Assembly (NCBI GenBank): GCA_963667725.2
Contig: CAXXHO010000007.1
Location: forward strand, 32,001 to 96,000
DNA from: Treponemataceae bacterium
Lineage (GTDB): Bacteria; Spirochaetota; Spirochaetia; Treponematales; Rectinemataceae
Reading direction: 5' to 3'
DNA length: 64,000 nt
How positions within the stretch are numbered: position 1 is the stretch's first letter; each line of letters starts with the position of its first letter. A program made the position numbers and the translations under genes. The notes beneath the pieces were generated by a model. It saw nothing but the letters and a program-made list of their open reading frames with translations. It did not search any database and had not been told where the DNA came from. Below, in pieces: positions 28,095 through 58,264 of the stretch.

Positions 28095-28227
28095 GGCTAA
28101 CACATGCTTCAGCCTGATAATTGCTTTTATCACACTTTTTGCAGTCGTCGCTTCGCTCCTTAGCAAAAAGTGCGCCAATCCTTCGCTTCGCTCAGGCATG
28201 GATTTAAAGCTTAAGCTAATGTTAGGT
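28095..28227 (+). repeat. attC 28 (chimeric, L boxes mutated)
   Basis: GGCTAAC..GCTTCAGC/CTTAAGC..GTTAGGT. Confidence 0.88.
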
Positions 28228-28256
28228 GGACGCGCTTAACGCGCGCTACAAGGAAA

Positions 28257-28916
28257 GTGAGTATGATCAAGAATAAGGCAATTATACTAGCAACTAGAAT
28301 ATCCTCATTCATTGTTGTCTTATTGGGCATCATCTCCATAGGTGGCGGGTTCAAAGGAAAATGGAACTGGTCATTATTCATGTACTATACCGTGCAAAGC
28401 AATACTCTCGTGCTGCTGATGTTTGGCTATTTGATTGTTAGGACGATTATAAGCATTAAGAACAAATCTGATCTCATAACCAAAACCAAAGACTTCGAAA
28501 TGGTCTGCATGGTAGACATATTTTTGACCTTCTTTGTGTATTGGACAATGTTGGCGCCGAAAATGACCTCACTGTGGGAGTTTTCAAACATTACCGTTCA
28601 TGGCGTAACGCCATTACTATGCATTATTGACTACATTCTTTATTATCAAAATAGTAGGTTAAAGTATCGAACTGTTTATTATGCCCTTATCTATCCGTTG
28701 CTCTATATAGTTTCCAATTCAATCGTGGGTTTACTTGGATATATCTATTACTATGATAGAACAGGTAGGCCTGTACATTTCCCTTACTTTTTTATGGATT
28801 ATGACAGGTTGGGGATCAAAACCATACCTTATATAGCTGGGTTAGTCGTGTTCATGGTTTGCATGAGTCATATAGTCTATGGTATTGATAAACGTATACT
28901 GAAGAAAAAGAGATAA
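28257..28916 (+). CDS. Pr6Pr-family membrane protein (cassette 29)
   Basis: YYTVQSN, TFFVYWTMLAP, HGVTPLL..D, YPLLY, FPYFFMD. Confidence 0.82.
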   Translation: MSMIKNKAIILATRISSFIVVLLGIISIGGGFKGKWNWSLFMYYTVQSNTLVLLMFGYLIVRTIISIKNKSDLITKTKDFEMVCMVDIFLTFFVYWTMLAPKMTSLWEFSNITVHGVTPLLCIIDYILYYQNSRLKYRTVYYALIYPLLYIVSNSIVGLLGYIYYYDRTGRPVHFPYFFMDYDRLGIKTIPYIAGLVVFMVCMSHIVYGIDKRILKKKR

Positions 28917-28931
28917 TGAAGTAATAGTAGC

Positions 28932-29058
28932 ATCTAGCACCTGCTTCAACCCGATAATTGCTTTTGGCGCAATTCTTGCAGTCGCTGCGCTCGGCAAGAA
29001 CTGCGCCAAGCCTTTGCTTCGCTCAGGCGCGGATTTAAAGGTTAAGCCAATGTTAGGT
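28932..29058 (+). repeat. attC 29 (inverse core mutated AAC to AGC)
   Basis: ATCTAGC...GTTAGGT. Confidence 0.88.
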
Positions 29059-29124
29059 GGACGCGCTAAGGCGCGCCAAGCAAGATACTGAATAGTTGAG
29101 CTATTGATGCATAGGAGTATAATC

Positions 29125-29766
29125 ATGTCGGATTACTCAAAAAGTGCATTGGAGATCTTGCGCAATCCTCAGAAGACAATGCAATGGTACATTATCCCGA
29201 TCTTTGTAATTGTCTTATACATATATTATAAAGAGTTACATGATAAGCACTACAATGTAGTATTAGGGGCATTTGCTTTATGGGGAATGGACCTCTTTAA
29301 CGAGATATGGAATAGCATTGTTTTTCATGCAACGGGGTTTGCTCCAGTGTGGGGCACTCCTGGCGGAGTAGGGAATACTTCATTATTGCTCTTGATTGGC
29401 TACAATATAGAAATATCGCTTATGTTCGCTGTTATGGGGATCGCCGTATGCTTAAGCTTGCCTAAAGACAAGACAAAGAAGATATTGGGGATCAATAATA
29501 GAATATTTTTAGGAATAGGGTTTACTACCGTAGCGGTGCTTGTCGAATGCTTTTTAAATTATGCTGGTTTATTGACGTGGGAATATCCTTGGTGGAGCAG
29601 GCAGGCGCCATGGCTTGTATGGCTTATAGGGTATGCTCCATTCTTTACGATGGCATTTATTGTCCATGATATGAAGAAACGCAAGAATCAAATACTTACT
29701 TTAGGTATAATACTGGGCATTGATATCATTGCATTAATTGTATTTGGAAGTATTGGTTGGATGTAA
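29125..29766 (+). CDS. Multi-pass membrane protein (cassette 30), paralogue of 53929..54558
   Basis: AGGAG RBS; ALEILR..MQWYIIP, EIWN, VWGTP, EISLMFAVMG, KILGINNR. Confidence 0.85.
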   Translation: MSDYSKSALEILRNPQKTMQWYIIPIFVIVLYIYYKELHDKHYNVVLGAFALWGMDLFNEIWNSIVFHATGFAPVWGTPGGVGNTSLLLLIGYNIEISLMFAVMGIAVCLSLPKDKTKKILGINNRIFLGIGFTTVAVLVECFLNYAGLLTWEYPWWSRQAPWLVWLIGYAPFFTMAFIVHDMKKRKNQILTLGIILGIDIIALIVFGSIGWM

Positions 29767-29778
29767 TAGAGAAGAAGC

Positions 29779-29908
29779 TTCTATCAATCGCTTCAATCCA
29801 ACTCGGCTACTGTCACGGTTTGTGCAAGGCCGCTTGGCTCCCAGCACAAACCACGCCAAGTTTTCGCTTCGCGCAGGCTCGGATTTAAAGGTTAAGCTAA
29901 TGATAGAC
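29779..29908 (+). repeat. attC 30 (both cores changed: ATC/GAT)
   Basis: TTCTATC...GATAGAC; family C left arm, family A right arm. Confidence 0.85.
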
Positions 29909-29940
29909 AAACGCGCTTCGCGCAGAGGAAAGATCTTCAC

Positions 29941-30384
29941 ATGAGAGTATGGTCATTGCACCCCAAATACCTAGATGCAAAAGGCATCGTCGCGGCGTGG
30001 AGAGAAGGGCTATTGGCAAAAAAGGTGCTAGAGGGAAGAACAAACGGATACAGAAACCATCCTCAGCTATGCCGATTCAAAGAGTGTAAAGACCCTGTTG
30101 AAGCAATAACTGCATATCTGCAGCATGTGTATAGTGAATCCCTTGTACGGGGCTATCGATTCAATGGAGACAAAATAGGTCCACATAGAGAATGTACGGA
30201 AATGATGATAGAAGTGACAGACGGGCAAATTGCATATGAGTATCGCTTGTTGCTGCATAAACTGAAGGCAAGAGATCCAACTAAATATAATCGGATAAAG
30301 AACATAAAGGACATTGAAGTAAACGGGATATTCAAGGTGATTGAAGGTGGGATTTGTGAATGGGAGAAAATGAAAGAACTATAG
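29941..30384 (+). CDS. Pyrimidine dimer DNA glycosylase / endonuclease V-like protein
   Basis: MRVWSLHPKYLDAKGIVAAWREGLLAKKVL.G.T.GY.NHPQL. Confidence 0.85.
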   Translation: MRVWSLHPKYLDAKGIVAAWREGLLAKKVLEGRTNGYRNHPQLCRFKECKDPVEAITAYLQHVYSESLVRGYRFNGDKIGPHRECTEMMIEVTDGQIAYEYRLLLHKLKARDPTKYNRIKNIKDIEVNGIFKVIEGGICEWEKMKEL

Positions 30385-30449
30385 GTTCACTATCCGAATG
30401 GGCAATCTCGGAGATAGTTGTGAAGTTGTTTCGAAGATCAGAAATCGGA
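30384..30449 (-). pseudogene. Fragment of a second Phd antitoxin gene
   Basis: Nearly identical to 27901-27966 (encodes PISDLRNNFTTISEIAHSDSEP). Confidence 0.85.
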
Positions 30450-30463
30450 TAAAAAAGAAGAAC

Positions 30464-30536
30464 GGCCAACTCCTGCTTCAGCTTGATAATTGCTTTTGTC
30501 ACAGTTCTTGCAGTCGCTGAGCTCGAGAAGAATTGC
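30464..30536 (+). repeat. Truncated attC (left half of family B only)
   Basis: GGCCAAC-TCCT-GCTTCAGCTTGATAATTGCTTTTGTCACAGTTCTTGCAG; no L'/R'. Confidence 0.8.
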
Positions 30537-30554
30537 CTACCTAAAGGATAAGCG

Positions 30555-31070
30555 ATGAATGTATCATTCCAGCTACTTAAGAAACCTACAAACGAAATAA
30601 TTGAAAAAATGGTTATATGGAATAATGATCCAAGCCTAAGGCCTCTTATTAGACCGAATAAATGTGAAGCAGATCTAGAAAAAATAATGACCACTTCTGA
30701 AATTGAATCGGGAATGAAGCACAGTATTACGCATATAATAAAAATTGACAAAGAAGTGGTTGGAGAAATAGGATATCAGATAGAACCACCTCAGTTGTTT
30801 AAGAAAGAAAAAGGAACCGTATGGATATCTATCATAATAGGAGAACAAGCAGCCCATGGCAAAGGTATTGGAACTGAAGCGATGGAGTATATAGAAAAAG
30901 TAATAAAAAAAGAAGGCTTTAGTAGGATTGAACTAGGAGTATTTGAGTTTAACAAGGTAGCACTAGGACTCTATCAAAAGATGGGATATAAGGAGATAGG
31001 AAGAGTGAAAGAATTCACCTATTGGAATGGAAAGATGTGGCAAGATATAAGAATGGAAAAGAACATTTGA
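30555..31070 (+). CDS. GNAT acetyltransferase
   Basis: IIIGEQAAHGKGIG, LGVFEFNKVA..LYQKMGY. Confidence 0.9.
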   Translation: MNVSFQLLKKPTNEIIEKMVIWNNDPSLRPLIRPNKCEADLEKIMTTSEIESGMKHSITHIIKIDKEVVGEIGYQIEPPQLFKKEKGTVWISIIIGEQAAHGKGIGTEAMEYIEKVIKKEGFSRIELGVFEFNKVALGLYQKMGYKEIGRVKEFTYWNGKMWQDIRMEKNI

Positions 31071-31085
31071 ACGAGGAATGAATAT

Positions 31086-31199
31086 TTCTAACACTCGTTT
31101 CAACCTGACTCGGCCACTGTCAAGGTTTGTGCTGCTCACTTCGTTCGCAAGCCACGAATCGCGCCTATTGACGCCTCGCAGGTTAGACGTATGTTAGAA
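31086..31199 (+). repeat. Last full-length attC (family C, eroding)
   Basis: TTCTAAC...GTTAGAA. Confidence 0.88.
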
Positions 31200-31245
31200 C
31201 GGCGCCTCCGGCGCCGGATCTTAAGAATCTATATTGGAGTGCAAT

Positions 31246-31779
31246 ATGCATATCAAGAAAATTATTGGCGACAAATGCTATCTTTCTCCCATCGATCTCG
31301 AAGACATCAATCTCTATCTAGAATGGCTCAACTCAGAGGATGTTTACAAATACCTCCTTGTAGGAACAAGCGTGCTTACGTATGAGACTGAAAAAGAAGT
31401 GTTGCTTAAGCTTTCTAAAGAACATGTGTATGGCATTATTGATAAGGAGACTGATAAACTACTAGGCAATGTTGGGCTAATGAGTGTCAATCACATTCAT
31501 AAAACGGCAGAAGTAGGAATATTTATTGGGAATCAAGAGTATTGGGGCAAAGGCTATGGAACTGAAGCTTTGAAGCTTCTTGTAGATTATGCCTTTCGAA
31601 TATTAGGGCTAGAGAACATTATGTTGAAGACCTATGATTATAATGTGAGAGCACAAAAGAGTTATAAGAAAGTAGGTTTTAAGGTTATGGGTGTGAGAAG
31701 AAGCTCTCATTACTATAATAATGAACGACATGATGATATTTATATGGATGTAGTAAAAGAAGACTTTTATCGTCAATAA
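31246..31779 (+). CDS. GNAT acetyltransferase, diverged copy of 20290..20823; its own attC is lost
   Basis: Same length and leader, about a dozen amino-acid changes. Confidence 0.9.
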   Translation: MHIKKIIGDKCYLSPIDLEDINLYLEWLNSEDVYKYLLVGTSVLTYETEKEVLLKLSKEHVYGIIDKETDKLLGNVGLMSVNHIHKTAEVGIFIGNQEYWGKGYGTEALKLLVDYAFRILGLENIMLKTYDYNVRAQKSYKKVGFKVMGVRRSSHYYNNERHDDIYMDVVKEDFYRQ

Positions 31780-31878
31780 GAAGCGGCAATGCAGTATAGA
31801 CCTTAGCTGCAAGGTAATTGATGAAGAGAATTATTTATGTTTAATAGCGCATTAAGCTTAAACGTGTGTTGAAAGGGG

Positions 31879-32124
31879 GTGAATATGCTAATTACATTGA
31901 TAATTGTCGGCGGAATCACAATAATATCTATAGCAGGTATTATTGGAGAAAGTTTAAGCAAGTCGAAAAAATCTACGTCATCAATAGATGCTAAAGAGAT
32001 GAAAGATTTAAAGGATAGAATCGCAGAACTAGAGAGAGTAATAGTTGAGCAAGATAAAAAAATTGAACATTTAGAAACGGATATCTCATTTACAAATAAG
32101 TTGCTAGAAGATAAGACAAAATAG
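31879..32124 (+). CDS. Small TM plus coiled-coil protein
   Basis: N-terminal hydrophobic helix followed by a heptad-like charged helix. Confidence 0.75.
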   Translation: MNMLITLIIVGGITIISIAGIIGESLSKSKKSTSSIDAKEMKDLKDRIAELERVIVEQDKKIEHLETDISFTNKLLEDKTK

Positions 32125-32146
32125 ATGTTTAGGCGGTAATAGAGAA

Positions 32147-32271
32147 ATTTAGCGCCTGCTTAAGCCTGGTGATTGCTTTCATCACAGTTCTTGCAGTTGC
32201 CACACACTGAAAGAAGTGCCCAAATCTTCGCTGCGCTCAGGACGCAATTATAAGTCAAGCTAGTGTTTTAC
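32147..32271 (+). repeat. Degenerate attC relic (family B)
   Basis: ATTGCTTTCATCACAGTTCTTGCAG..CTTCGCTGCGCTCAGGACGCAATTATAAGTCAAGCTAGTGTT aligns end to end with attC 9. Confidence 0.8.
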
Positions 32272-32356
32272 GGAAAATGCACGCATCATTATCGGTTTTC
32301 TTCTCTATGGCGAAATTTTGAAGTGTTAGGCAAACAGGCTTTTGGAGATTGAAGAT

Positions 32357-32644
32357 ATGATAATTCTTGTTATTACTCACGAAATGCCAAATATCAAATG
32401 GAATGAATACGGGACCATTTTAAAAGAAGAAGCTAAGGCAATATGGAACTTACAGAAGAAAGGGAAGATAAGGAATATTTGGTTTAGGAAAGATACAAGA
32501 GAAGCAATAATAATGTTTGAAGATATAAATGTTGAAAGCGTAAGGCAGATGATGGCTCAACTTCCTTTAGCTAAAGGGAGCCTAATGACCTATGAGATAA
32601 TGCCTTTAGAAGCCTACGATGGATATGAAAGGCTATTTTGTTGA
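32357..32644 (+). CDS. Muconolactone isomerase-like dimeric alpha/beta barrel protein
   Basis: LKEEAKAIWNLQKKGKIRNIWFR..LPL..YEIMPL. Confidence 0.7.
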   Translation: MIILVITHEMPNIKWNEYGTILKEEAKAIWNLQKKGKIRNIWFRKDTREAIIMFEDINVESVRQMMAQLPLAKGSLMTYEIMPLEAYDGYERLFC

Positions 32645-32657
32645 AGAAAGAGAAAAC

Positions 32658-32771
32658 TTCTAGCACTAGCTTCAGTCTGACTCAGCTACTATCACAGTCT
32701 GTGCGAGGTCGCTTCGCTCCCTAGCACAAACTGCGCCAGCAGCCATTTCACAAGTTAATCGAATTTTCAAT
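32658..32771 (+). repeat. Degenerate attC relic (family C-like)
   Basis: TTCTAGC-ACTA-GCTTCAGTCTGACTCAGCTACT..GCACAAACTGCGCCAG..GTTAATC. Confidence 0.78.
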
Positions 32772-32812
32772 AGACAGAACGATTCCAAATTTTTCTGCCA
32801 AATAGAGGCACT

Positions 32813-33373
32813 ATGGGTAAACTCATTTATACTGCTTTAATATCACTTGATGGCTACATATCTGATGATTTAGGCAATTTTGATTGGGCAGAGCCGCAGG
32901 AAGATGTTCACAGATATATTAATAATATTGAAGATAGGATAAGCCTTGTACTGTATGGCAGGAAAATGTATGAAATTTTGTCAGTTTGGGAAAATATTCT
33001 TGATATGGGAAACCAGCCAGATTATATTAAAGAATACGCGATAGCTTGGAAAAAGCAAAGAAAGATAGTATTTAGTACAAAATTGCAAGCTGTATCGATA
33101 TCTAATACCAAGCTCATGAAAAAATTTGATCGAGATGAAATAGAGAGAATGAAAATAGATGAATTGGGTGATATGGGAATTGGAGGAGCAAATCTTGCTT
33201 CACAAGCATTTGATTTATGCTTGGTTGATGAGATAATGATATTTATCTATCCCATAGTAATAGGGAATGGAACTAAATGGCTTGGTTCGATTAGGAATGT
33301 ACAGCTTGAAATGATGGAAGTAAGAGAATTTAATAATGGAATTGTGATGATTCATTATTCAGTGAAAAAATAA
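32813..33373 (+). CDS. Dihydrofolate reductase / RibD C-terminal family protein
   Basis: ISLDGYI, LYGRKMYE, KIVFS, GGANLA, VDEI..PIVIGNG. Confidence 0.9.
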   Translation: MGKLIYTALISLDGYISDDLGNFDWAEPQEDVHRYINNIEDRISLVLYGRKMYEILSVWENILDMGNQPDYIKEYAIAWKKQRKIVFSTKLQAVSISNTKLMKKFDRDEIERMKIDELGDMGIGGANLASQAFDLCLVDEIMIFIYPIVIGNGTKWLGSIRNVQLEMMEVREFNNGIVMIHYSVKK

Positions 33374-33391
33374 GAAGCGGAGAGAATTGCT

Positions 33392-33437
33392 GCCTGGCGA
33401 TTGCTTCAGCCTTATAAATCATTTGTAAAGATTGTGC
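33392..33437 (+). repeat. Partial attC relic (family A left arm)
   Basis: GCTTCAGCCTTATAAATCATTTGT versus GCTTCAACCTTATAAATCCTTTGT. Confidence 0.65.
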
Positions 33438-33449
33438 TAGGATTGAAGA

Positions 33450-33986
33450 GTGAAGCTACGCCTTATAAAAGCTGATATTGCATTTATGATAGAGAAAAAG
33501 TACGAGAATGAAATAATTCCATCAAAATGTATAATTAGTGGAGCAAATTTGAAGGATCTAAAAACAGTGCACAATGAAATAGAAAACTTTATTGCGCTTA
33601 AAATGGAGTCTGATTCGCCGTTTGCAAATAGGAAAGGCGAGAAGGTGTTCGATATTATCCGTATTTGCCCAAACCACTTAGGATACAGGCGTTTTACGTA
33701 ATAGGGCGGAAGCCAAAATGTATAAAAAATAGGTGGAACAACATTAATAACCTCATTATCTAGCTTCGGGAATATCTCGTCTTTGGCAATTCCTTTAGGG
33801 AGTTATCCATTGGCAATGGCTATAGGTTCGATTAAAGAATAGGCTTGGACGGTTAATGGAAAAATTGAGGTTAGGGAAATACAGAATATAACCATGCAGT
33901 TCAGTCATGACTTTGTAGATGGTGGAGACGAAGCGTGATTTATTAAAGTACTTAATGATGAACTCGATAAATTAGCTAAAGAAATA
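33450..33986 (+). pseudogene. 2-oxoacid dehydrogenase acyltransferase (E2 catalytic domain-like) pseudogene
   Basis: DIAFMIE..IISGAN.K then GGTTLITSLSSFG..AIGSIKE*AW.VNGKIEVRE..ITMQFSHDFVDGG.EA*F with in-frame stops. Confidence 0.75.
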
Positions 33987-34015
33987 TGCCGAGCGGCTCT
34001 TAAGCGCAGGAAGAA

Positions 34016-34579
34016 ATGGAAAACATCAAATTGGATCGTTCATCAAAGATTCTCGTGATCGGGACAAGCGGCTCTGGAAAAACAACACTTGCCGAAAAGT
34101 TGAGCAAAATGTTGGGCATTAAGAATATCGAACTGGATGCTCTCTTTTGGAAAGAGAACTGGACACAATCAAGTACCGAAGAGTTTCGGGAAAAAATTGT
34201 GAGTTCAATTAAAACGGCAGAAGGGTATGTACTTCATGGGAACTATAATAAGGTTAAAGACTTAACATGGGGCAATGTGGATACTGTAATATGGCTTGAT
34301 TATGGTAGGGTAGTAGTAATGTGGAGGGTGCTTAAGAGGACTATTGGCAGGATTATAACGCAAGAAGAATTATGGGCAGGAAACAAAGAGACTTTCAAGA
34401 AATCATTTTTAGAAAAAGATTCAATAGTTCTCTGGGCTTGGAATACTTATAAAAAGAGAAAGGAGCAATATTCTATAATGGTGAAAGATAATCCTTATAG
34501 GATTAAGGAAATTGTTGTATTGAAAAGTCCTAAAGAGGCAAAGTCATTGTTGAAGATGATTGAAGAACTAAAATGTTGA
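34016..34579 (+). CDS. Adenylate-kinase-like / topology modulation (FlaR-like) protein
   Basis: IGTSGSGKTTLA, ELDALFW, GNY, IWLD. Confidence 0.85.
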   Translation: MENIKLDRSSKILVIGTSGSGKTTLAEKLSKMLGIKNIELDALFWKENWTQSSTEEFREKIVSSIKTAEGYVLHGNYNKVKDLTWGNVDTVIWLDYGRVVVMWRVLKRTIGRIITQEELWAGNKETFKKSFLEKDSIVLWAWNTYKKRKEQYSIMVKDNPYRIKEIVVLKSPKEAKSLLKMIEELKC

Positions 34580-34635
34580 ATCACCTGTCGTTCTTTGAAT
34601 ATAAGATTTTTAAGTGTGCAGGGTAGGGTGGAAAA

Positions 34636-35109
34636 GTGGAGTATGCAGTCTGGCTGGACTATTTGGAGCGTCAAAAGAACATGGGGAACCATCATTCTCC
34701 GCAATATGTGTTTGCTGAACACTTTTGCAATGACAAACAATCGGCAGACAAATTGTATCAATTGGTGATGGATGGAAAGAAAAGGGCAACTACAGGAAGT
34801 ATATGGGCATATGAACATGATAACGAACCGATATTAAATTCTGGAGACCTTACAATCTTGACGAACTATGATGAATCACGGGCATGTGTAATAAGAACAA
34901 AAAGTGTAGTCATAAAGAAATTCAAAGAGATCACTGAAGACGAGGCGGGAAAAGAAGGAGAGGGGGATTTGAGTTTGGGATATTGGCGAAAAGTCCATAA
35001 AGAATACTTCGAAGAGGAATGTAGGAGGATTGGAAGAGAATTTTCCGAAGAAATGCCTGTAGCATATGAAGAGTTTGAGATTGAGTATGAGAATGAGCGT
35101 GGTCATTGA
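34636..35109 (+). CDS. ASCH domain protein
   Basis: ADKLYQLVMDGKKRATT, EGEGDLSLGYWRKVH. Confidence 0.9.
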   Translation: MEYAVWLDYLERQKNMGNHHSPQYVFAEHFCNDKQSADKLYQLVMDGKKRATTGSIWAYEHDNEPILNSGDLTILTNYDESRACVIRTKSVVIKKFKEITEDEAGKEGEGDLSLGYWRKVHKEYFEEECRRIGREFSEEMPVAYEEFEIEYENERGH

Positions 35110-35163
35110 TGTTCAAAGGGAAGCATTCAGAGAGTGCGTTGCGCGGATGTTTAGCTCGGAGGA

Positions 35164-35742
35164 TTGAAAAATATGAACGATGAATTGGAATTCCAATCTA
35201 GGCAACATTTTAGGCTTTGGTTAACTGAACATTCACAAGATGGGAAAGGTGTTTGGGTCATCTTTTGTAAAGGCAAGGAAGCAACCACATTGAAATCTAG
35301 TGAGGCGCTGGAGGAAGCATTGTGCTTTGGCTGGATTGATGGGCAGATCAAGCCAATAGATGATGTAAGGTATATGAAATACTTTGCTCCACGAGGAGCA
35401 AAAAGTAATTGGTCGGAGAAAAATAAGAGGCTTGCAGAGGAACTCATTAAGGCTGGTTTGTTCTCAGAGTATGGGTTCTCTGCGATTGAAAAATCAAAGA
35501 AAAATGGGTTATGGGATCAGGAAAAGAAAAACATCGATCCCGATGCCATAGTGAAAACACTTGCCGATGAGCTGAAAGTGAATAGCATAAAGGCGCATGG
35601 GATATTCAGCTCTTCATCGGAATCGAAACAGAGGCAGTTGGCTAGGTTCTATGCCGATGTCAAGAGTGAAGAAGTCAGGAAAAAAAGAATGATAAAAATC
35701 GTAGAGGCATTAATAGAGCGCAAAAAAGGTATGTTGTATTAA
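35164..35742 (+). CDS. YdeI/OmpD-associated family protein
   Basis: FRLWL..H, EEALCFGWIDG, FAPR..KSNWSEKNK. Confidence 0.88.
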   Translation: MKNMNDELEFQSRQHFRLWLTEHSQDGKGVWVIFCKGKEATTLKSSEALEEALCFGWIDGQIKPIDDVRYMKYFAPRGAKSNWSEKNKRLAEELIKAGLFSEYGFSAIEKSKKNGLWDQEKKNIDPDAIVKTLADELKVNSIKAHGIFSSSSESKQRQLARFYADVKSEEVRKKRMIKIVEALIERKKGMLY

Positions 35743-35850
35743 GCGGAGACACATAAGGGTACTGGAGTATGCGCTTATGCGAGCGAGTGGGAGAATGGCA
35801 TACAGACTTATTCATATAAGTTTGATAAAAATATTGTCAGGAGATGCCGT

Positions 35851-36513: not shown

Positions 36514-36604
36514 ATTGGGCACGATCCATGGATAGACTCTTTGGGAAAATGATCGATAATGATAAATCGATGCAGCTAAGAGAGAATTGAAGTGAGGCAG
36601 TATT

Positions 36605-38356: not shown

Positions 38357-38362
38357 AACTTA

Positions 38363-49375: not shown

Positions 49376-49512
49376 CTGCGGTCACAGCGCATCAATATGA
49401 GGCATGTATTGGCTGGACGCCATCCTGCGAAAAGTTTCGCAATTTGTATTGCATCTCATTCATAAGTAAAGCAATATAGCCGCACATCACGGAATGGGGA
49501 GAATTCGACATA

Positions 49513-50169: not shown

Positions 50170-50305
50170 AAAAGACGCCGATAGCGAGTCCAATCCGGCG
50201 AGGTCAATGTCCTGGTTCGCCCGCCTCGCCTTGCCCGCGAGGCATAGGCATGCCAATATACGCATTGTCGAATTGGCCAATGTCAGGAGAAAGGGGCTGC
50301 GCTTT

Positions 50306-50803
50306 ATGGATGAGCATATTCGCTTCGTCTGCAAGGAAGATGCTGCAAATATCGTTGAGATATACAACTACTATGTGCTGAATACGGAAATATCCTTTGA
50401 GGAAGATGCGGTCTCCGTGGAAGAGATGGGCGGGCGAATTGAGGAGAAGATAAAAAAGTTCCCTTGGATCGCATATGTGGAAGGTGGGGAACTTCTGGGA
50501 TATGCCTATGCCGGCCAATGGAAAGAACGATCGGCGTATAGGCATACCGTCGAAGACACGATCTACGTGAGAGCGGGCGAGGTGGGCAGAGGCATAGGAC
50601 GAAAGCTCTTCGAGGGCTTGCTGGAAGAACTGGCGAAAGACAAAGAAGTGCACGCAATCATGGGAGTGATCGCGCTGCCCAACGAGAAGAGCGTGCTAAT
50701 GCATGAAAGGAATGGGTTCATAAAAGCGGCCCATTTTAGGGAAGTTGGATTCAAGAACAACAAGTGGATAGATGTTGGATATTGGGAAAAGGTGATGGGC
50801 TAG
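50306..50803 (+). CDS. GNAT acetyltransferase (phosphinothricin/YncA-like)
   Basis: IYNYYV.NT.ISFE, GYAYA..W.ERSAY, IALPNEKSV.MHE..GF, EVGFK..KWIDVGYW. Confidence 0.92.
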   Translation: MDEHIRFVCKEDAANIVEIYNYYVLNTEISFEEDAVSVEEMGGRIEEKIKKFPWIAYVEGGELLGYAYAGQWKERSAYRHTVEDTIYVRAGEVGRGIGRKLFEGLLEELAKDKEVHAIMGVIALPNEKSVLMHERNGFIKAAHFREVGFKNNKWIDVGYWEKVMG

Positions 50804-50830
50804 TCGCCGCGGGGCGAGCCGGGAGACAAC

Positions 50831-51733
50831 GTGAAATCGTATATAGTATATCAGGTAGACTCGTTTACGGATACAATATTCTGCGGGAATCCCGCCGGGG
50901 TCGTCCTCAACGCGGATGGCTTGTCCGATGAGGATATGCTGAGCATAGCCAGGGAATTGAACAACTCGGAAACATCATTTTTCTTTTCCCCTAAAGACGG
51001 GAGCTGCGACGGCGAGCTGCGTTATTTTACACCCAAAGTTGAAGTTCCGACCTGCGGACATGCGACGATAGCGGCGCTCTATGCGAAGGCTGTAGAGGAG
51101 AAAATGGGGAGCCGCTTGCTGAATATCCGGACTAGGGTCGGGGTACTCCCCATGGAAATAGCGAAAAAGGGAGATGATTACTCCGTTTGCATGACGCAGG
51201 GCAGGGTGGAAATCTCGGATTCCCTGGATGGCCCGTTGGCCGATGAACTGTTGACGGCCCTGGGGCTGAAAAAGGATGATCTTGACGCGAGGTGCCCCAT
51301 GCAAATAGCCTCGACGGGACATTCCAAAGTGATGATAGGCATCAAAAGCAGGACTGCCTTGAATGGGATTGTTCCCGATTTCGCCGGACTTGCGGAATTG
51401 AGCAAGAAAATAAAATGCAATGGCTACTTTGTCTTCACCTTTGACACGAGCGAAGGGCGCGCCTTGACTGAGGGACGGATGTTCGCGCCGGCGATCGGAG
51501 TCAATGAGGATCCCGTGACTGGAAACGCGAACGGGCCATTGGGCGCCTACTTGATTCACAACAAGATCGTGCGGGAAGAAAATGGGAAATTTGAGTTTAT
51601 CGGGTATCAAGGGGAGCAGATGCATCGGCCTGGAAGAATAATGGTGGAAGTGACAGTGCGCGATGGAAAACCAGAGAAGGTAAAGATCGCCGGGCAAGCA
51701 AGGATTGTTTTTAGGACTGAAATTACTTTGTAA
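50831..51733 (+). CDS. PhzF family isomerase
   Basis: QVDSFT..F.GNPAGVV, NNSETSF, FTP..EVPTCGHAT, EDPVTGNANG. Confidence 0.92.
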   Translation: MKSYIVYQVDSFTDTIFCGNPAGVVLNADGLSDEDMLSIARELNNSETSFFFSPKDGSCDGELRYFTPKVEVPTCGHATIAALYAKAVEEKMGSRLLNIRTRVGVLPMEIAKKGDDYSVCMTQGRVEISDSLDGPLADELLTALGLKKDDLDARCPMQIASTGHSKVMIGIKSRTALNGIVPDFAGLAELSKKIKCNGYFVFTFDTSEGRALTEGRMFAPAIGVNEDPVTGNANGPLGAYLIHNKIVREENGKFEFIGYQGEQMHRPGRIMVEVTVRDGKPEKVKIAGQARIVFRTEITL

Positions 51734-51792
51734 AGCGGGAATTGTTCCGCATAAATGCTGGGCGACAATATGTTTGGAGATGCGAAGAGATT

Positions 51793-52575
51793 ATGGTAGG
51801 GATATTCTCATGGTATGGAATCCGGCAGGTGTTTGAAAAGCGCATAAAGGCGATAAAATGCGCGGGATTCGATGCGACTGCGATATGGATCGACGAGGAC
51901 GGACAATGGGAGACCGATCCTGAAGATATGCCCAAAATCATAAGGGACAATGGCCTCATTCTCGAATATGCGCATGCGCCGTATAGCCGCTGCAATAGCT
52001 TGTGGGACCAGACTAAACATTGGGAGCTCGAGGAAGAGATTAAAAAGCACATCAATTATTGTTCAAGACATGGAATACCAATTCTGGTGACGCATCTCAC
52101 CAAGGGATACAGGGTCAAGGAAGCAAATGAGCACGGCCTCAACGCCCTAAAGAGGATTGTGTCCTACGCCAAGGACAACAACGTGAGCATCGCCGCAGAG
52201 AATACAAAGCAGAATGCAGTCGTTGAAAAGGTTTTTGCGGAGATAGGGGACAGGGCACTGGGCCTATGTTTCGATACGTCGCATGACAATTTATATAGCG
52301 ACAGGAAATTTTCGCTTTTGGAAAAATACCACGACAGATTGCTCTGCCTCCATATATCCGACAACGATGGGCGCATGGACGACCATTGGATACCCTACCA
52401 GGGCATGATCGACTGGAATGAATTTGTCAGGAAATTCCCCAAAGAATACGGGGGAATACTTAATCTGGAAATACTCTCCAGGAACAAGGATGACGACGAA
52501 ATGTCCGTATTGGGAGAGGCGTACGGTACTATTAGGGGCATTGAGGAGAAAATCGCATCGCGGCGCCAATGCTGA
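51793..52575 (+). CDS. Sugar phosphate isomerase/epimerase (AP endonuclease 2-type TIM barrel)
   Basis: HAPY, IAAEN, CFDTSH, LHISDNDG..DDH..P, LEI. Confidence 0.88.
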   Translation: MVGIFSWYGIRQVFEKRIKAIKCAGFDATAIWIDEDGQWETDPEDMPKIIRDNGLILEYAHAPYSRCNSLWDQTKHWELEEEIKKHINYCSRHGIPILVTHLTKGYRVKEANEHGLNALKRIVSYAKDNNVSIAAENTKQNAVVEKVFAEIGDRALGLCFDTSHDNLYSDRKFSLLEKYHDRLLCLHISDNDGRMDDHWIPYQGMIDWNEFVRKFPKEYGGILNLEILSRNKDDDEMSVLGEAYGTIRGIEEKIASRRQC

Positions 52576-52639
52576 CGAGGCCGGACAAGCCTTGGAACGC
52601 CAATGTTCCCGCTGCGATAGGTTCGAAGGAGACTAAGCG

Positions 52640-53209
52640 ATGAATTTGGCCATTACCATAATTAACTTGCTGAATCAGTTCCAAGCTGGATATTACGCCC
52701 GAGAGGCAAGCCGCCTCGACGAGTTCATGGAGCTGTTCACGCACGATGTGGAAATAATCGGAACGAATGGATCATATCCCGGAAAAGATGAATGGTACCT
52801 CGATCAGGTTGGCGCGCGAGCGCTCGTGTCGGGAGACTGGGAAGACTGGGGGGATTTGAAGATCGATTTTGACGCGGTGAGGATTCACGAAAGAGGAAAT
52901 GTCGGCTGGGTGTCGATCCCCGCGACCGTGACAAAAATCATAGGCGATGACAACTATCAATCATATCTGGATTATGTAAAAAGCTACATGGATCTTCCAA
53001 ATATTCCCGCCAAAAACAAGCTGCTCAACATACTTCGGGGAGGTACCAACACCGTATTTGAGCTGAACCGAGGGGAGAAATTTGTCTGGCCCATCAGGAT
53101 AACGGCCGTTGTATTAAATGAAGACAATGGCTGGAAATTCGCGCAGATGTGCTTCTCGTTTTCCACGATTTATTTTCCTGACGTTAGGGAATTCGAGAAG
53201 CTCGCATAA
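52640..53209 (+). CDS. NTF2/SnoaL-like protein
   Basis: FQAGY..R..FMELF..IIGT, RITAVVL..WKFAQM.FS. Confidence 0.78.
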   Translation: MNLAITIINLLNQFQAGYYAREASRLDEFMELFTHDVEIIGTNGSYPGKDEWYLDQVGARALVSGDWEDWGDLKIDFDAVRIHERGNVGWVSIPATVTKIIGDDNYQSYLDYVKSYMDLPNIPAKNKLLNILRGGTNTVFELNRGEKFVWPIRITAVVLNEDNGWKFAQMCFSFSTIYFPDVREFEKLA

Positions 53210-53283
53210 TGAAGGCAAGCGCCGCAACAAGTTTGACACCAAGGTCGGCAAGTTGTATAAGGCATTAAGGCCAGGAGGATGTC

Positions 53284-53865
53284 ATGAATCCTGAAGTCGA
53301 TGATTTTCTTCGCAGCGAAAAAAGGTGGAAGGCGGAGTTTTCGAAGTTGAGGACGATAATCCTCGATTGCCGGCTTGAGGAAGGGGTGAAGTGGGGACAG
53401 CCCTGCTACTCGCTGGATGGCAAGAATATCGTCTTGATTCACGGATTCAAAGAATACTGCGCGATGCTTTTTTTCAAAGGCGCTCTGCTGAAAGACCCGA
53501 AACATGTTTTGATCACGCAAACGGAAAACGTCCAGGCGAGCAGGCAAATCCGATTTACGAACGCTGACGAAATAGCGGCGCTCGAGCCGACCCTGAAAGA
53601 GTACATCGCTGAGGCTATCGAGGTGGAAAAGTCGGGACTGAAGATAGCTTTTAGGGAAACGAAAGAGTTCAAAATGCCCGAAGAGCTGCAGGAGAAAATG
53701 GATGCGGTCCCCGGCTTGAGGGATTCGTTCAATGCCCTGACGCCGGGACGGCAGAGGGCGTACATTCTGTTCTTTTCCGAGCCAAAGCAGGCGAAGACAA
53801 GGGTATCCCGGATAGAGAAGTATGTGGAGCATATCATGGCCGGAAAGGGATTGCAGGATATTTGA
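53284..53865 (+). CDS. YdeI family protein (DUF1801 plus OmpD-associated domain)
   Basis: KWGQPCY, IHGFKEYCA.LFFKGALLKDP, FNALTPGRQRAY. Confidence 0.92.
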   Translation: MNPEVDDFLRSEKRWKAEFSKLRTIILDCRLEEGVKWGQPCYSLDGKNIVLIHGFKEYCAMLFFKGALLKDPKHVLITQTENVQASRQIRFTNADEIAALEPTLKEYIAEAIEVEKSGLKIAFRETKEFKMPEELQEKMDAVPGLRDSFNALTPGRQRAYILFFSEPKQAKTRVSRIEKYVEHIMAGKGLQDI

Positions 53866-53928
53866 GGGGGCGGGTCTGCAAGCCTTGCGCGGCTTTTCGG
53901 AAAAGCGTGCTTTCCATAGGAGGAAGAT

Positions 53929-54558
53929 ATGGAGCTCAATCATCCAGAGTTGACGCAAACGGCGCTCGGCATCCTGAGGAGCGGCAGCACCTTCCAATGG
54001 TACTTCATCCCGCTTATGGCCTTCGCCGTCTACGTGTATTTCTGTGAGATCGAAAAGAAGAATTGGAAAGGGATAGCTTCCGGCCTAGCCTTGTATTCCA
54101 CGCATTGGGCCTACGAAATAGCCAACGCGCTGATACAGCATTTTTCCGGACATGCGCTGTGGACCGTTCCCTCCGGGACCTCATTCTTGCTGCTCGTCGG
54201 CGTTGGCTGGGAATTGTCGATGATGTTCGCGGTGGCGGGCGTGATTTTCTCAAAAATACTTCCGGCGGATCCGAAGGCGGAAATATTGGGGATCAACAAT
54301 AGGATCGCAATCGCGGTAGGCAATGCCGCGTTATTCTCCATCATAGAGATTTTTCTCGCGAAGACGCCGGCATTTCACTGGGTGTACGGTTGGTGGGGTG
54401 CCCTGCCGGTGTTCATCACCGTGTACATTCCGTTCTTTTTGATGGCCAACTTCGCGTACGATTGGAAGCCCAGGACCCAGAAAATCGTGATAGGGTCGTT
54501 GGCTGCGGTCGACCTGCTCGCGATGGTCGTTTTTGCCGGCCTGCTGAAGTGGATTTAG
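53929..54558 (+). CDS. Multi-pass membrane protein, paralogue of the cassette gene 29125..29766
   Basis: ALGILR..FQWYFIP, EIAN, LWTVP, ELSMMFAVAG, ILGINNR. Confidence 0.85.
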   Translation: MELNHPELTQTALGILRSGSTFQWYFIPLMAFAVYVYFCEIEKKNWKGIASGLALYSTHWAYEIANALIQHFSGHALWTVPSGTSFLLLVGVGWELSMMFAVAGVIFSKILPADPKAEILGINNRIAIAVGNAALFSIIEIFLAKTPAFHWVYGWWGALPVFITVYIPFFLMANFAYDWKPRTQKIVIGSLAAVDLLAMVVFAGLLKWI

Positions 54559-54584
54559 CGAAATCCGTCGACACGCGAGGCTTT

Positions 54585-55133
54585 ATGATACCGTATTCCC
54601 GAAAAAGACCGGAATTCTCGCTCTGCGGTCTCAACTGTTCCTTGTGCCCCCGATTCCACACCGAGGGGACATCCCGGTGCCCCGGCTGCGGCGGATCTGG
54701 GTTTAGCCTGAAGCATCCTTCCTGCGGCGTGATTTCATGCGCGAGGAAGAACGGCGATGTGGAGTATTGCTTTGAATGCGCCAAGTATCCCTGCGAGAAA
54801 TACGCGCGGGATGGCGGGAAAGACTCGTTCATCACGTACAAAAAGGTCGCCGAGGATATCGCCGCCGCGAAAGCCGACATCGAGGCTTATTTGGCTGCCC
54901 TTGGGAAAAAAGAAGCCATTCTCCGAGAGCTGATCGCCCGATTCGACAACGGCAGGATGAAAGGATACTACTGCCTGGCGGTGAACTTGCTGCCCCTGGA
55001 CGATCTCGCCGCGCTCGTCGATGGCGCGCGGGCGATGGAGGTCGACGATAAAGATTCGATCGCCTCCGCGCTGAAGGAAGGCCTTCGGGAAATCGCGGCC
55101 CGGCGCGGTATCGACGTGGCCTTGAGGCGGTGA
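54585..55133 (+). CDS. DUF3795 cysteine-cluster protein
   Basis: CGLNCSLCP, CPGCG, C.VISCA, YCFEC..YPC. Confidence 0.85.
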   Translation: MIPYSRKRPEFSLCGLNCSLCPRFHTEGTSRCPGCGGSGFSLKHPSCGVISCARKNGDVEYCFECAKYPCEKYARDGGKDSFITYKKVAEDIAAAKADIEAYLAALGKKEAILRELIARFDNGRMKGYYCLAVNLLPLDDLAALVDGARAMEVDDKDSIASALKEGLREIAARRGIDVALRR

Positions 55134-55187
55134 AGACGCCGCTGACGCCGGCATAGGCTGCGGCGCGGAATAATTGAGAGGGGATTT

Positions 55188-55646
55188 ATGGATATCAGGA
55201 CTATGACCATGGAGGATTACGGCGAGGTCTATGCCTTGTGGGCGTCGACGCCCGGCATGGGGCTCAACAGCCTCGACGACAGCCGGGAGGGTATTCAAAA
55301 GTATCTAAATCGCAATCCGGGCACCTGCTTCGTCGCGACAAACCAGGGACACATCGCCGGGGTGATCCTGAGCGGCCACGATGGCCGGAGGGGGTTCATC
55401 TACCACACGGCGGTCGCGATCAGCGAGCGCGGAAAAGGCTGCGGCAAGGCGCTGGTGGAGCGCGCGCTGGACGCGCTTCGCGCCGAGGGAATCAACAAGG
55501 TGGCGCTCGTGGTCTATGAGAACAACGATATCGGAAATGGCTTCTGGGAAGCCTTGGGATTCGATCGCCGACCGGATTTGACCTATAGGAACAAGGTGAT
55601 CGCTGAGCGCCCCATGAAAGTACTGGACCCGATCGCGGGACGCTGA
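55188..55646 (+). CDS. GNAT acetyltransferase (YpeA-like)
   Basis: GHDGRRGFIYHTAV..RGKG.G, KVALVV..N..GN.FW. Confidence 0.92.
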   Translation: MDIRTMTMEDYGEVYALWASTPGMGLNSLDDSREGIQKYLNRNPGTCFVATNQGHIAGVILSGHDGRRGFIYHTAVAISERGKGCGKALVERALDALRAEGINKVALVVYENNDIGNGFWEALGFDRRPDLTYRNKVIAERPMKVLDPIAGR

Positions 55647-55677
55647 GCGGTTGTCGCCCCGGTGATGGAAAACTATA

Positions 55678-55947
55678 ATGGAATGTAGGCCCGGCTGCGC
55701 AGGATGCTGCATTTATATTTCCATTTCCTCGCCGATCCCGGGGATGCCTGGGGGAAAGCCGGCCGGGATGCGCTGCGCGAACCTCGATGCGGCCAACCGC
55801 TGCAGGATTCATGGAAGCGGCGACTACCCCGCGGTATGCAGAGCCTTTTCGCCGTCGGAAGAGATGTGCGGAACCGACGACGAGCAGGCGCGCGATTATC
55901 TGATTTCCCTGGAAGCGCTGACAATGCCGCCCGAGCGAGCACATTGA
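55678..55947 (+). CDS. YkgJ family cysteine-cluster protein
   Basis: CRPGCAGCC..SISSPIPGMP.GKPAG.RC..L..C.I..P.VC. Confidence 0.9.
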   Translation: MECRPGCAGCCIYISISSPIPGMPGGKPAGMRCANLDAANRCRIHGSGDYPAVCRAFSPSEEMCGTDDEQARDYLISLEALTMPPERAH

Positions 55948-55962
55948 GGAGAGAATTCATCC

Positions 55963-56466
55963 ATGAACACATTCATTGACGTTTTGATGTCGCGGCGCAG
56001 CGTTCGGCAGTTTTCCGGAGCCCAGGTAAGGCAGGAGGACCTTGAGCTGTTGACGAGGGCGGGCATGGCGGCTCCCACGGGGATGAACCTGCAGCCATGG
56101 TCTTTCATCGTCGTTACTGACAGGCGCAAAATGGATGCCCTGCGCGAGGGGCTGCCTTATGCGAAAATGCTGGACAAGGCGGGGGCGGCCATCGTCGTTT
56201 GCGGCGACCGGAGCGCGCATCATTGGGTTGAGGACTGCTCCGCCGCGGCGGAGAATATCCTGCTCGCGGCCCATGCCCTGGGCTATGGGGCGGTATGGAC
56301 GGCGGCGTATCCTTACGAGGACAGGATCGCGATAGTCGGGAAGGAATGCGAGATTCCGCCCGAGTTCATCCCGCTCTGCGTCATTCCGGTAGGCGTTCCC
56401 CGCGGCGGGGCCGGCGCCGCGAAAGACAAGTATCGGCCGGCGAGTGTCCATAAGGATGTCTGGTGA
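55963..56466 (+). CDS. Nitroreductase family protein
   Basis: RRSVR, AAPTG.N.QPW.F, DCSAA.ENILLAA.ALG.G.VW. Confidence 0.92.
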   Translation: MNTFIDVLMSRRSVRQFSGAQVRQEDLELLTRAGMAAPTGMNLQPWSFIVVTDRRKMDALREGLPYAKMLDKAGAAIVVCGDRSAHHWVEDCSAAAENILLAAHALGYGAVWTAAYPYEDRIAIVGKECEIPPEFIPLCVIPVGVPRGGAGAAKDKYRPASVHKDVW

Positions 56467-56506
56467 CCGGGGAGCAATCTGAAAAGACCGTGGACTCGAA
56501 TTCATC

Positions 56507-57043
56507 GTGCTGTCAAAGGGGGACATCGTGAAAGAAGTTATGCGATACTATGCGCGGTGCAACAGGGAAATCAACGCGAACATGGCGAAGATCATCGGCG
56601 AGAAGGTTGAAAGCCCGATGAGTCTTGCCCTGAGGGGTTATTTCTTTCCGACGCTGGGGAAGCTGCTGGAGCATATTTTCATAGCCGATATGGTATGGAT
56701 CAAGGCTTTCGGCACCGTCGACAGCTGCGGGCTCGATTTCGAAAAAGAGCTCGGGCCGACGCCGGACTATAAAGACGCCCTCTTCGCCGACTTCGATTCG
56801 TACCGGAAAAGGCGGGAGGCGTTGGACGCTTTCATTGAGCGCTACGCCGAAAGAGTCGACGAGGGTTTCTTTGCAAAAAAGGTCGTGAGGGTGAACAGAA
56901 AGGGCGAGCGGACCGAAAAGGACGTGTGGAAGGCGGTGCTGCACTGCTTCAACCACCAGACGCATCACCGGGGACAGGTCAGCTGCATACTGGACGAACT
57001 CGGGATCGAGAACGATTATTCCAACATGATTCGGATAGAGTGA
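56507..57043 (+). CDS. DinB family protein
   Basis: LLEHIFIAD..W, HCFNHQTHHRGQ. Confidence 0.9.
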   Translation: MLSKGDIVKEVMRYYARCNREINANMAKIIGEKVESPMSLALRGYFFPTLGKLLEHIFIADMVWIKAFGTVDSCGLDFEKELGPTPDYKDALFADFDSYRKRREALDAFIERYAERVDEGFFAKKVVRVNRKGERTEKDVWKAVLHCFNHQTHHRGQVSCILDELGIENDYSNMIRIE

Positions 57044-57654
57044 TGCGGAGAGATGGCTTGAAGGTGAAGACAGCTTCGGTTATTTTGGCGCATCCATATG
57101 AGAAGAGCTTCAACCATGCGATTTTCGCGACTGCGTCGGCGGCGTTGAGCGCGCGCGGAATTTCGGTTTTCGCCCACGATCTCTACGCGGAACGCTTCGA
57201 TCCGGTGCTCACGCGCGCCGAACTCGGCAAGGAAGCGACGGCCGATCCTCTCGCGGCGAGGTACATAGAGGAGCTCGTCGCGTCGGACCTGCTGGTGTTC
57301 ATCCATCCGAACTGGTGGGGACAGCCTCCCGCCATGATGAAGGGCTACATCGACCGCGTTTTCAGGCCTCCCTACGCCTACGACTACGAGGAAAGCGCGG
57401 CGGGCCTGGCCGAGACGATACAAAAACTGGGCGGCAAGATAGGTGTCGTCTTCAATACGTCGAACACCGAGGAGCGCCGCGAGCTCGAGTATTTCCACGA
57501 TCCGCTGGAATATGAGTGGATGAGATGCGTTTTCGGCTTTTGCGGGATCGAGCGCGGCTCGAGGCGGATGTTCCGGGTCGTGGCGGAGAGCAGCGCGGAA
57601 GAGCGGACCGCGTGGCTCGAGCAGGTGAAGGGCGATATCGAAAGATATCTGTAG
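57043..57654 (+). CDS. NAD(P)H-dependent oxidoreductase (flavodoxin-2 fold)
   Basis: AHP..SFNHAI, DLY.E.FDPVL, HPNWWGQPPAMMKGYIDRV. Confidence 0.92.
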   Translation: MRRDGLKVKTASVILAHPYEKSFNHAIFATASAALSARGISVFAHDLYAERFDPVLTRAELGKEATADPLAARYIEELVASDLLVFIHPNWWGQPPAMMKGYIDRVFRPPYAYDYEESAAGLAETIQKLGGKIGVVFNTSNTEERRELEYFHDPLEYEWMRCVFGFCGIERGSRRMFRVVAESSAEERTAWLEQVKGDIERYL

Positions 57655-57676
57655 CGTTCCAAGCGCGGACGCTGCG

Positions 57677-58054
57677 ATGGGGGTGGCAATGGCGGCGGTA
57701 CGGATGGAAAAGATTGAATCGACGCTGCGCCTCGCCATTGAATTCCGCGCCAGGCTGGCGCGGGAGGATTTCGACGGAGCCGTCGCATTGTTGAGCGACC
57801 AGTGCCGCATCGACGCGCCGGAAGGGGTTTTCGCGGGCAGGGAAGAGGCGAGACGATATTTTGCGCGCCGCGCGGGCGAGCTGCGCGGAACGGCTCAAGA
57901 GGTCGAGGAAATTTTCGGGATGGGATTCCGGTGCATCGTGCGACTCAGGGACGGGAATCGACGGAGCCTTGAACTATTCAAGGAAGAGCGCGGCGCGTTG
58001 AGCGAGATCCTGATTTACGCAAAGGACGCGCCGGCGGACACAATTCGGGGGTGA
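57677..58054 (+). CDS. NTF2/SnoaL-like protein
   Basis: DFDGAVALLSD.C..GVFAGREE.RRYF. Confidence 0.7.
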   Translation: MGVAMAAVRMEKIESTLRLAIEFRARLAREDFDGAVALLSDQCRIDAPEGVFAGREEARRYFARRAGELRGTAQEVEEIFGMGFRCIVRLRDGNRRSLELFKEERGALSEILIYAKDAPADTIRG

Positions 58055-58057
58055 GGA

Positions 58058-58264
58058 TTGGAATTCTTGTGGACATTCGAGAGCAACGAAAAAGCGGAGC
58101 CGCTCATCATAAGCCTGCAGAACAAGGCCATAGCTTTCGAGCTGCAGTCGAAAGGCAAACAGGGGAAGGGTGGCGGCGACGTGTCCATCTACGTGGCGGA
58201 AGAAGATTACGTAGTCGCCAAGAAACTGTTGATGAAGCATCGCAAGCGGAAGCCGAGCGCTTGA
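58058..58264 (+). CDS. Small DUF2007-like protein
   Basis: GAGG RBS; A..I...LQ..AI, IYV.EEDY..AKKLL. Confidence 0.6.
   Translation: MEFLWTFESNEKAEPLIISLQNKAIAFELQSKGKQGKGGGDVSIYVAEEDYVVAKKLLMKHRKRKPSA

Follow-up and report, generated by a model that had tools for sequence, protein, structure and literature searches.

Results

The integron and its genomic setting

The window analysed here is the whole stretch of 64,000 nucleotides (nt) from contig C7 of the Treponemataceae assembly GCA_963667725.2 (G000:C7:32001-96000), and it carries a chromosomal integron (an integrase gene, intI, an attI insertion site and an array of gene cassettes with attC recombination sites) followed by about 30 kb of short genes that lack intact attC sites. 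The IntI integron integrase is encoded on the + strand at 4700..5992 by an open frame of 430 amino acids (aa; TIGR02249, 461.6 bits against a cut-off of 265); its best full-length matches among named records were distant proteins from spirochaete metagenome-assembled genomes (46-72% identity in the best segment), indicating broad taxonomy only. A GTTRRRY-like heptamer directly before cassette 1 (6161..6167, +) is the probable attI core, a function predicted from its sequence and position. The intact array (6582..27389, +) comprises 27 attC sites of 105-138 nt, identified by their boxes and fold, with the AAC/GTT core present in 27/27, near-invariant L boxes and predicted bottom-strand folding free energies of -20 to -46 kcal/mol; the original prediction, made from the letters alone, had also placed intact sites up to about 27.4 kb. 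IntI and the cassettes share one strand, and the cassettes run in the direction of IntI transcription. The GC content at third codon positions (GC3) of the array cassettes was flat at 0.27 (rho 0.26, p 0.21); predicted hairpin stability dropped with distance (free energy per 100 nt versus distance, rho 0.74), a fall that was weak in the array of contig C1 (0.38). The array contains duplicate cassettes 99-100% identical to each other. A cassette of roughly 537 bp without Pfam match, possibly non-coding, is present in three to four near-identical copies (79-97%) at 6162-7241 and 10781-11325, two of them occupying positions 1 and 2 beside attI.

The chromosomal location is fixed: the MatE/Fe-ADH flank adjoins intI in C1, C5, G001, G005 and G017 as well, and the EamA/MatE distal flank is also present at the C5 locus. 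As judged from sequence, the integrase family, the attC array and this constant core-gene setting would make the locus a complete sedentary chromosomal integron, and intI sits immediately upstream of that unbroken array, outside the definition of the attC site clusters that lack an integron integrase (CALIN), which have no neighbouring intI. No Rfam family was matched in a scan of the window.

The assembly has three such integrases, on C7, C1 and C5, and homologous MatE and Fe-ADH genes adjoin each of them. Between C7 and C1 there is collinearity at 83-94% nt identity, and between C7 and C5 at about 70-87%; C1, C2, C4 and C6 likewise duplicate C5 regions at about 70-87% identity. These collinear duplicates, together with a contamination of 6.26%, indicate that the assembly is most likely a mix of related spirochaetes, and the organism of the window is likely not its main genome; three integron copies in one cell were considered less likely, given the C7/C1 identity and the collinearity with C5. 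Since the assembly is probably mixed, the core genes of C7 itself (42 genes, GC3 0.85) served as the host reference; C1 and C5 lent themselves to comparison. The short-read contigs of run X1, which may be the source sample, cover 32.5-60 kb end to end and show no difference from the window, evidence against a mis-join; run X5 matches it as short scattered pieces only.

The tail genes and their decaying attC sites

The array is followed by a reverse-oriented Phd/ParE toxin-antitoxin cassette (27418..27980, - strand; Pfam), the last toxin-antitoxin module before the decay. Open reading frame calls and Pfam then identified 49 intact short genes on the + strand (28257..58264), bounded distally by an Ogt-like DNA-repair gene on the - strand (58328..59092; TIGR00589, 107 bits against a cut-off of 46.4) and, after it, the core EamA and MatE genes. 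The original prediction had described an unbroken run of about 45 + strand genes; the same-strand run to 58264 stands, with a count of 49 (a de novo caller gave 46 + genes and 1 - gene). The cassette-type families it named were recovered by Pfam: the tail encodes GNAT, NUDIX, ASCH, AHSA1, TfoX, YdeI/OmdA, DinB, SnoaL, PhzF, nitroreductase, flavodoxin and other proteins. Toxin genes of toxin-antitoxin modules numbered six in 28 cassettes and 0 in the 49 tail genes.

All sites and site relics of the tail described below lie on the + strand. The first three, expected near 28095, 28932 and 29779 with mutated boxes, were indeed damaged by covariance model (CM) and box inspection: both L boxes are mutated at 28097..28227, the AAC core is mutated at 28934..29058, and both core triplets (AAC, GTT) are changed yet mutually complementary at 29781..29908. 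Such triplets normally come from different cassettes, and the pair at 29781 possibly reflects a hairpin-templated change. A 73-nt Phd antitoxin gene fragment (30384..30456), about 90% identical to the Phd gene near 27.9 kb and the relic of a deleted toxin-antitoxin cassette, precedes a 5' half site (30464..30536; attC search and alignment), and two end-to-end relics follow at 32149..32271 (CM 50 bits) and 32660..32771 (42.5 bits), all three sites as anticipated. Between the half site and these relics lies a nearly intact site with its core kept and L' altered (31088..31199, 58 bits), which had been overlooked. A GNAT cassette at 20133-20823 is duplicated at 31089-31779, together with its upstream attC (89% over 300 nt), and the distal copy is without a downstream attC of its own. 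The last relic visible to the CM is a 5' fragment at 33394..33466 (E 0.003).

The CM and a hidden Markov model, both built from sites 1-27 of the window array, gave no signal past 33.5 kb and did not detect 38363, 38970, 42920 or 43548. A more sensitive scan, the local alignment of each spacer to the 216 attC plus leader sequences of the assembly, gave scores of at least 36 in 7/8 spacers at 28.9-33.4 kb and in 6/27 at 33.6-49.5 kb. Three of these relics are firm, since five of 330 real low-GC control spacers reached 36, two reached 38 and none 40 (maximum 38): a 3' attC half with a cassette-leader relic (38363..38418, score 60); a relic that keeps the register of the attC in the cognate C1 cassette, with gene, spacer and site collinear (43548..43633, score 50); and the cassette leader of a YczE-like gene (49409..49512, score 40), whose homology to the cassette C5:466619 starts at the crossover heptamer. 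By the same control, three weak relics are borderline on their own: two 3' attC/leader relics (38970..39020, score 38, best matched by the site upstream of the cognate C5 cassette of the gene; 40496..40535, score 36, not among the fragments originally proposed) and a 5' attC relic (42920..42958, score 38, profile p 0.005). Ungapped attC-end profiles were weak, with combined p values for the 3' block of 0.08, 0.61 and 0.59 by zone and 0/9 spacers at p <=0.05 beyond 49.6 kb; a short leader pattern was dropped for its chance matches in core DNA. The predicted fall of attC quality with distance was therefore upheld as an overall trend and, among the fragments proposed between 33392 and 43544, the first was confirmed by CM, two are firm and those at 38970 and 42920 borderline; the claim that nothing is recognisable after 43544 fell with the leader at 49409, which scores above all control spacers. 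The tail genes, followed by damaged or partial sites, then fragments and finally none, are without the intact downstream attC of a gene cassette and would be former, not present, cassettes.

Tail genes have homologues in attC-bearing cassettes

Homologues were sought in the assembly outside the array and tail of the window and in 153 fetched loci, at a threshold of at least 40% aa identity. Homologues bearing attC, which the original prediction had named as a check, were found for 9/24 true cassettes, 2/8 tail genes at 28-33.4 kb, 12/28 at 33.4-49.6 kb and 3/13 past 49.6 kb, compared with 0/40 core genes of similar size (mid-tail: Fisher p 4e-6 versus the core controls, 0.78 versus the array). 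The fetched loci were partly picked by tail homology, which favours the tail, yet 10/12 of the best mid-tail matches are in the C1 and C5 arrays of the assembly itself. In two of the mid-tail cases the homology extends to the flanks: a C1 cassette and its attC can be aligned over the full length of gene 43033, its spacer and the relic at 43548, and the 104-nt leader of gene 49513 matches that of C5:466619 from the crossover heptamer on. Comparisons between tail genes and cassettes gave nonsynonymous distances (dN) of 0.04-0.34 and synonymous distances (dS) from 0.6 to saturated, indicating, dN being far below dS throughout, that the tail genes are kept by selection. Synonymous third positions differed in a biased way in 13 tail/cassette pairs (426 positions with AT in the cassette against GC in the tail gene, 124 the other way round), and this bias increased with distance (rho 0.73). 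The nearest attC-bearing homologues had a GC3 of 0.15-0.35 irrespective of the position of the tail gene. A cassette origin of the tail to about 49.5 kb is thus well supported.

The YczE-like gene 49513 was the only case of a tail family present at the same locus in relatives without intI there. Genomes of the genus g20 share the Fe-ADH to EamA locus, with no intI or attC at it, and have there a YczE-like gene 68-74% identical to 49513; three g20 genomes checked carry IntI elsewhere. The window copy is 80% identical to an attC cassette and shares with it 18/21 fourfold-site states versus 11.1 expected (weak/strong odds ratio 2.8, p 0.013), a synonymous sharing not seen in nine attC-less YczE-like copies from other genomes. 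The closer relationship to the cassette, the common leader and the common synonymous states indicate that 49513 is not the resident gene, so that vertical inheritance, which the original prediction had named as a refutation, was not supported for it.

GC3 rises gradually along the tail

GC3 rose from 0.27 in the array through 0.36, 0.41, 0.46, 0.55 and 0.66 to 0.75 in the last zone of the tail (rho 0.91 with position). The change was gradual, since a smooth (quadratic) curve had a better Bayesian information criterion (BIC; -287.8) than one, two or three steps (-237, -279 and -281), the outcome that had been set against a stepwise change; the straight line reached -268.6. Fourfold-site GC ran ahead of GC at first (GC1) and second (GC2) positions. 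The two edges of the locus differ: the proximal one is sharp (GC3 0.86, 0.71, then 0.23) and the distal one gradual. The climb in total GC given in the original prediction was correct in trend, its spot counts being somewhat exaggerated; in 1-kb steps, positions 7, 35-36, 45, 51 and 57 kb gave 0.34, 0.37-0.41, 0.45, 0.51 and 0.60, respectively, and the flank gave 0.62-0.68. Intergenic gaps shrank as proposed (medians of 170, 83, 40 and 47.5 nt along the locus, rho -0.54), but start/stop coupling is the exception, only 6/48 gaps being of 12 nt or less. With regard to the proposed merging into operons, promoter-like and terminator-like counts at 44-58.4 kb were near shuffle levels (19 versus 13.2 and 20 versus 14.8 shuffled, respectively).

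Related loci repeat the gradient

Three other spirochaete loci, from kin genomes and so not fully independent, repeat the gradient; gene calls in the relatives come from a simple caller and contain some errors. The C5 locus has a tail of 10 genes (GC3 0.31-0.64, rho 0.93) ending at the same 68-aa gene as the window. In G024:C245, two attC sites are followed by 19 genes whose GC3 goes from about 0.3 to 0.8 (rho 0.87); an attI-like site and the two attC, without adjacent intI, lie near 14500-15300, before the graded tail. In G063:C8, an array at about 160-206 kb is followed by 89 same-strand genes over 73 kb (86939-160000), with GC3 from about 0.4 to 0.65 (rho magnitude 0.66) and relics that thin out by 155 kb, one borderline score remaining at 122 kb. 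This attC-less tail is longer than that of the window and better suited to dating, its distal end being common to several relatives of the genus.

Distal genes are inherited in order in that genus, g17. Near-collinear G058 homologues were found for 10/12 distal genes of G063, versus 0/23 and 3/55 nearer the array, and the corresponding counts for G067 were 6/12, 3/23 and 3/55 (counts from fetched stretches, with which whole-genome DNA searches agree). G067 keeps an ordered tail remnant with no IntI above the cut-off. The predicted distal rise in synteny therefore appeared in g17 and not at the window's own locus. G063 and G067 mid-tail orthologues are 93-96% identical at the nt level versus 87% in the core flank, an excess that may reflect later exchange of tail DNA.

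Other arrangements were seen in the same genomes. The giant C5 array (G000:C5:396816-549999) has 173 attC matches along 140 kb, its distal end being broken and partly inverted among insertion sequence (IS) copies. Contig C3 (G000:C3) has integrase-less attC clusters at 353-360 kb, 503-529 kb and 1635-1654 kb, of which the last comprises 15 sites that vary in quality. G012:C4:10001-30000 and G015:C55 carry long + strand runs of cassette-family genes with a near-host GC3 of 0.55-0.8 and no attC matches, candidates for fully ameliorated fossil arrays.

Discussion

The usual picture of a chromosomal integron is that of a store of mobile cassettes, most of them silent. We propose, with a probability of roughly 0.7, that the window holds a complete integron trailed by 49 former cassettes locked successively from the far end and arranged in order of time. 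Cassette excision requires a site on each side. Fresh AT-rich cassettes would enter at attI and displace older ones outward; a mutation killing the outermost working attC would strand its gene permanently, and the same event inside the array would merely fuse neighbours into a still-mobile block. Because excision needs a working site on both sides, locking would advance from the distal end inward, as a ratchet. Once locked, the attC DNA would be eroded and deleted and toxin-antitoxin cassettes lost, while useful genes would stay under purifying selection with their third positions drifting to host GC. In Vibrio cholerae, according to the available part of that report, insertion favours attI despite about 180 attC sites (PMC8191803). 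The relics, the cognate cassettes and the GC3 gradient support the core of the original prediction, that old cassettes lose attC and ameliorate.

Several observations weigh against this proposal. The decay is not strictly monotonic, since the near-intact site at 31088-31199 sits distal to dead ones. In the C5 locus, the 10 tail spacers have no detectable relic, and the array shows neither decay with distance in 160 full-length sites (hairpin rho -0.04) nor a GC3 trend over 123 cassettes; the absence of decay in so long an array indicates that the belt is not a universal steady state. None of the close relatives covers the window mid-tail, and G017 matches from 57333 only. The remaining points mostly concern the last 13 genes, whose cassette origin we infer by extension. 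Only 3/13 have cassette homologues at the threshold used, and 0/13 spacers beyond 49.5 kb scored at least 36 against the 216 references, so that relics which beat shuffled spacers, as had been asked of them, and also real control spacers end at 49.4 kb. Genes 53929 and 55963 are saturated at synonymous sites versus their cassette homologues, and the tree of 53929 includes 17 attC-less high-GC homologues and is poorly resolved. For four families, the protein trees were largely unresolved; 49513 and 53929 are path-nearest to attC cassettes, without a supported clade. The families of the last 13 genes are also ordinary high-GC genes in many relatives, and traffic may therefore run both ways. A test for a shared AT-rich past was positive only for 49513 and negative for 53929, 55963, 51787 and 50309.

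Among the alternatives, an episodic freeze, in which the integrase became less active during one or a few phases and blocks of cassettes decayed together as a staircase, survives best, and we hold it to be somewhat unlikely. It draws on the two- and three-step fits, only 6-9 BIC units behind the smooth one and ahead of the straight line, and on the C5 locus, which jumps from intact cassettes (GC3 0.22) via an IS-broken zone to its tail. Nevertheless, the smooth curve fits best, hairpin stability is already falling within the intact array, IntI is intact, and the 99-100% identical cassettes in the array are recent duplicates.

An origin in two parts, with former cassettes reaching to about 49.5 kb only and the last 13 genes being old residents or accessory genes acquired otherwise, seems unlikely. 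The 13 spacers without relics fit it, as do the last six genes, near the core in GC1, GC2 and amino-acid make-up, the last three tail genes (57333-58298), common to G017 at 91% nt identity (on a contig of 1.8 kb, the G017 genome being 76% complete), the 68-aa gene that also terminates the C5 tail, and the occurrence of these families elsewhere as ordinary genes. However, there is no GC3 break at 49.5 kb; gene 53929 shares 87% identity with a G057 attC cassette (GC3 0.73 versus 0.35) and 55963 is 56-59% identical to attC cassettes; the 3/13 cassette homologues exceed the 0/40 of core genes (p 0.012); the tails of G063, G058, G012 and G015 are made up of these families too, in shuffled order; and, at the same locus, g9 genomes lack such genes and g20 genomes mostly have different ones. 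The historic array would be about twice the attC-defined one, as originally proposed (52 kb from attI to 58264 against about 27 kb), if all 49 genes are former cassettes.

That the gradient stems from position (the core flank spreading its influence by mutation, gene conversion or recombination) or from donors of graded GC, instead of time since capture, is improbable. In its favour, capture age can be gauged only indirectly here, the tail genes show no clean trend in synonymous distance to their nearest cassettes (a noisy 0.21-0.76), and GC1 and GC2 climb too. Against a pure position effect stand the abrupt proximal core junction (in G019 the array likewise meets the core with a GC3 jump from 0.25 to 0.84) and the cassette-family genes isolated among G058:C7 core genes, which stay AT-rich (0.37-0.44); moreover, a low-GC block lies inside the G063 tail at 105-108 kb, and the nearest cassette homologues are uniformly low in GC3.

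Successive locking from the distal end combines features of known processes. Amelioration of acquired genes towards host composition is textbook knowledge, and Lawrence and Ochman (1997) reportedly described third positions moving ahead of first and second ones in horizontally acquired genes. The tail agrees with this, its third positions leading the others towards host GC, but amelioration is usually inferred for scattered islands, and the window offers 49 genes standing in order that would share one source pool. The locus resembles the Treponema-type integron, as presented in the accessible text of Wu et al. 2013 (PMC3607928), in an IntI transcribed towards attI, a long homogeneous attC array and low-GC cassettes; cassettes below host GC are also typical of Vibrio arrays, according to the portion available of PMC1382264. 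It differs in that the arrays of that type, within the same text, are delimited by attC, with remnants discussed only after intI loss, whereas in the window the platform is intact and passes gradually into about 30 kb of former cassettes without sites. As far as their available text goes, Cury et al. 2016 (PMC4889954) proposed very degenerate attC clusters without integrase as a step towards definitive gene stabilisation. The fate of the genes, from capture to stabilisation, would be the same in both cases; that proposal is speculation on integrase-less clusters, and in the window, unlike in them, intact intI and attI lie side by side and the stages follow one another along the DNA, accompanied by a GC3 gradient and by cognate cassettes for comparison. 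A literature search, with subscription papers and supplements mostly outside its reach, found no case in which attC sites and GC3 are graded in order behind a complete integron, and none is described in the consulted parts of the Xanthomonas preprint 10.1101/2025.06.18.660453 or of PMC11023631, PMC12690207 and PMC1382264. Stabilisation by attC decay had thus been proposed for integrase-less clusters, and the ordered gradient behind a complete integron appears to be new.

The long-term persistence of chromosomal integrons is presented as an open question in the available text of PMC11023631. With the stages between working cassette and host-like gene without a site set out in order, the proposed stabilisation step can be tested one gene at a time, which could show when sites die, which functions persist, and how fast GC3 and amino-acid content converge. 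The chances seem even that this is a standing route into the stable genome of these spirochaetes, in which the distal ratchet would lay down age-ordered former cassettes (30 kb here, more than 70 kb in G063) that outlive the integrase, many of the long same-strand runs of small GNAT, NUDIX and DinB-type genes of relatives (G012:C4, G015:C55, G058:C6) would be fully ameliorated fossil arrays, and position would serve as an amelioration clock. Tools based on attC would miss about half of the DNA delivered by the locus, and part of the ordinary accessory genome may have an integron origin.

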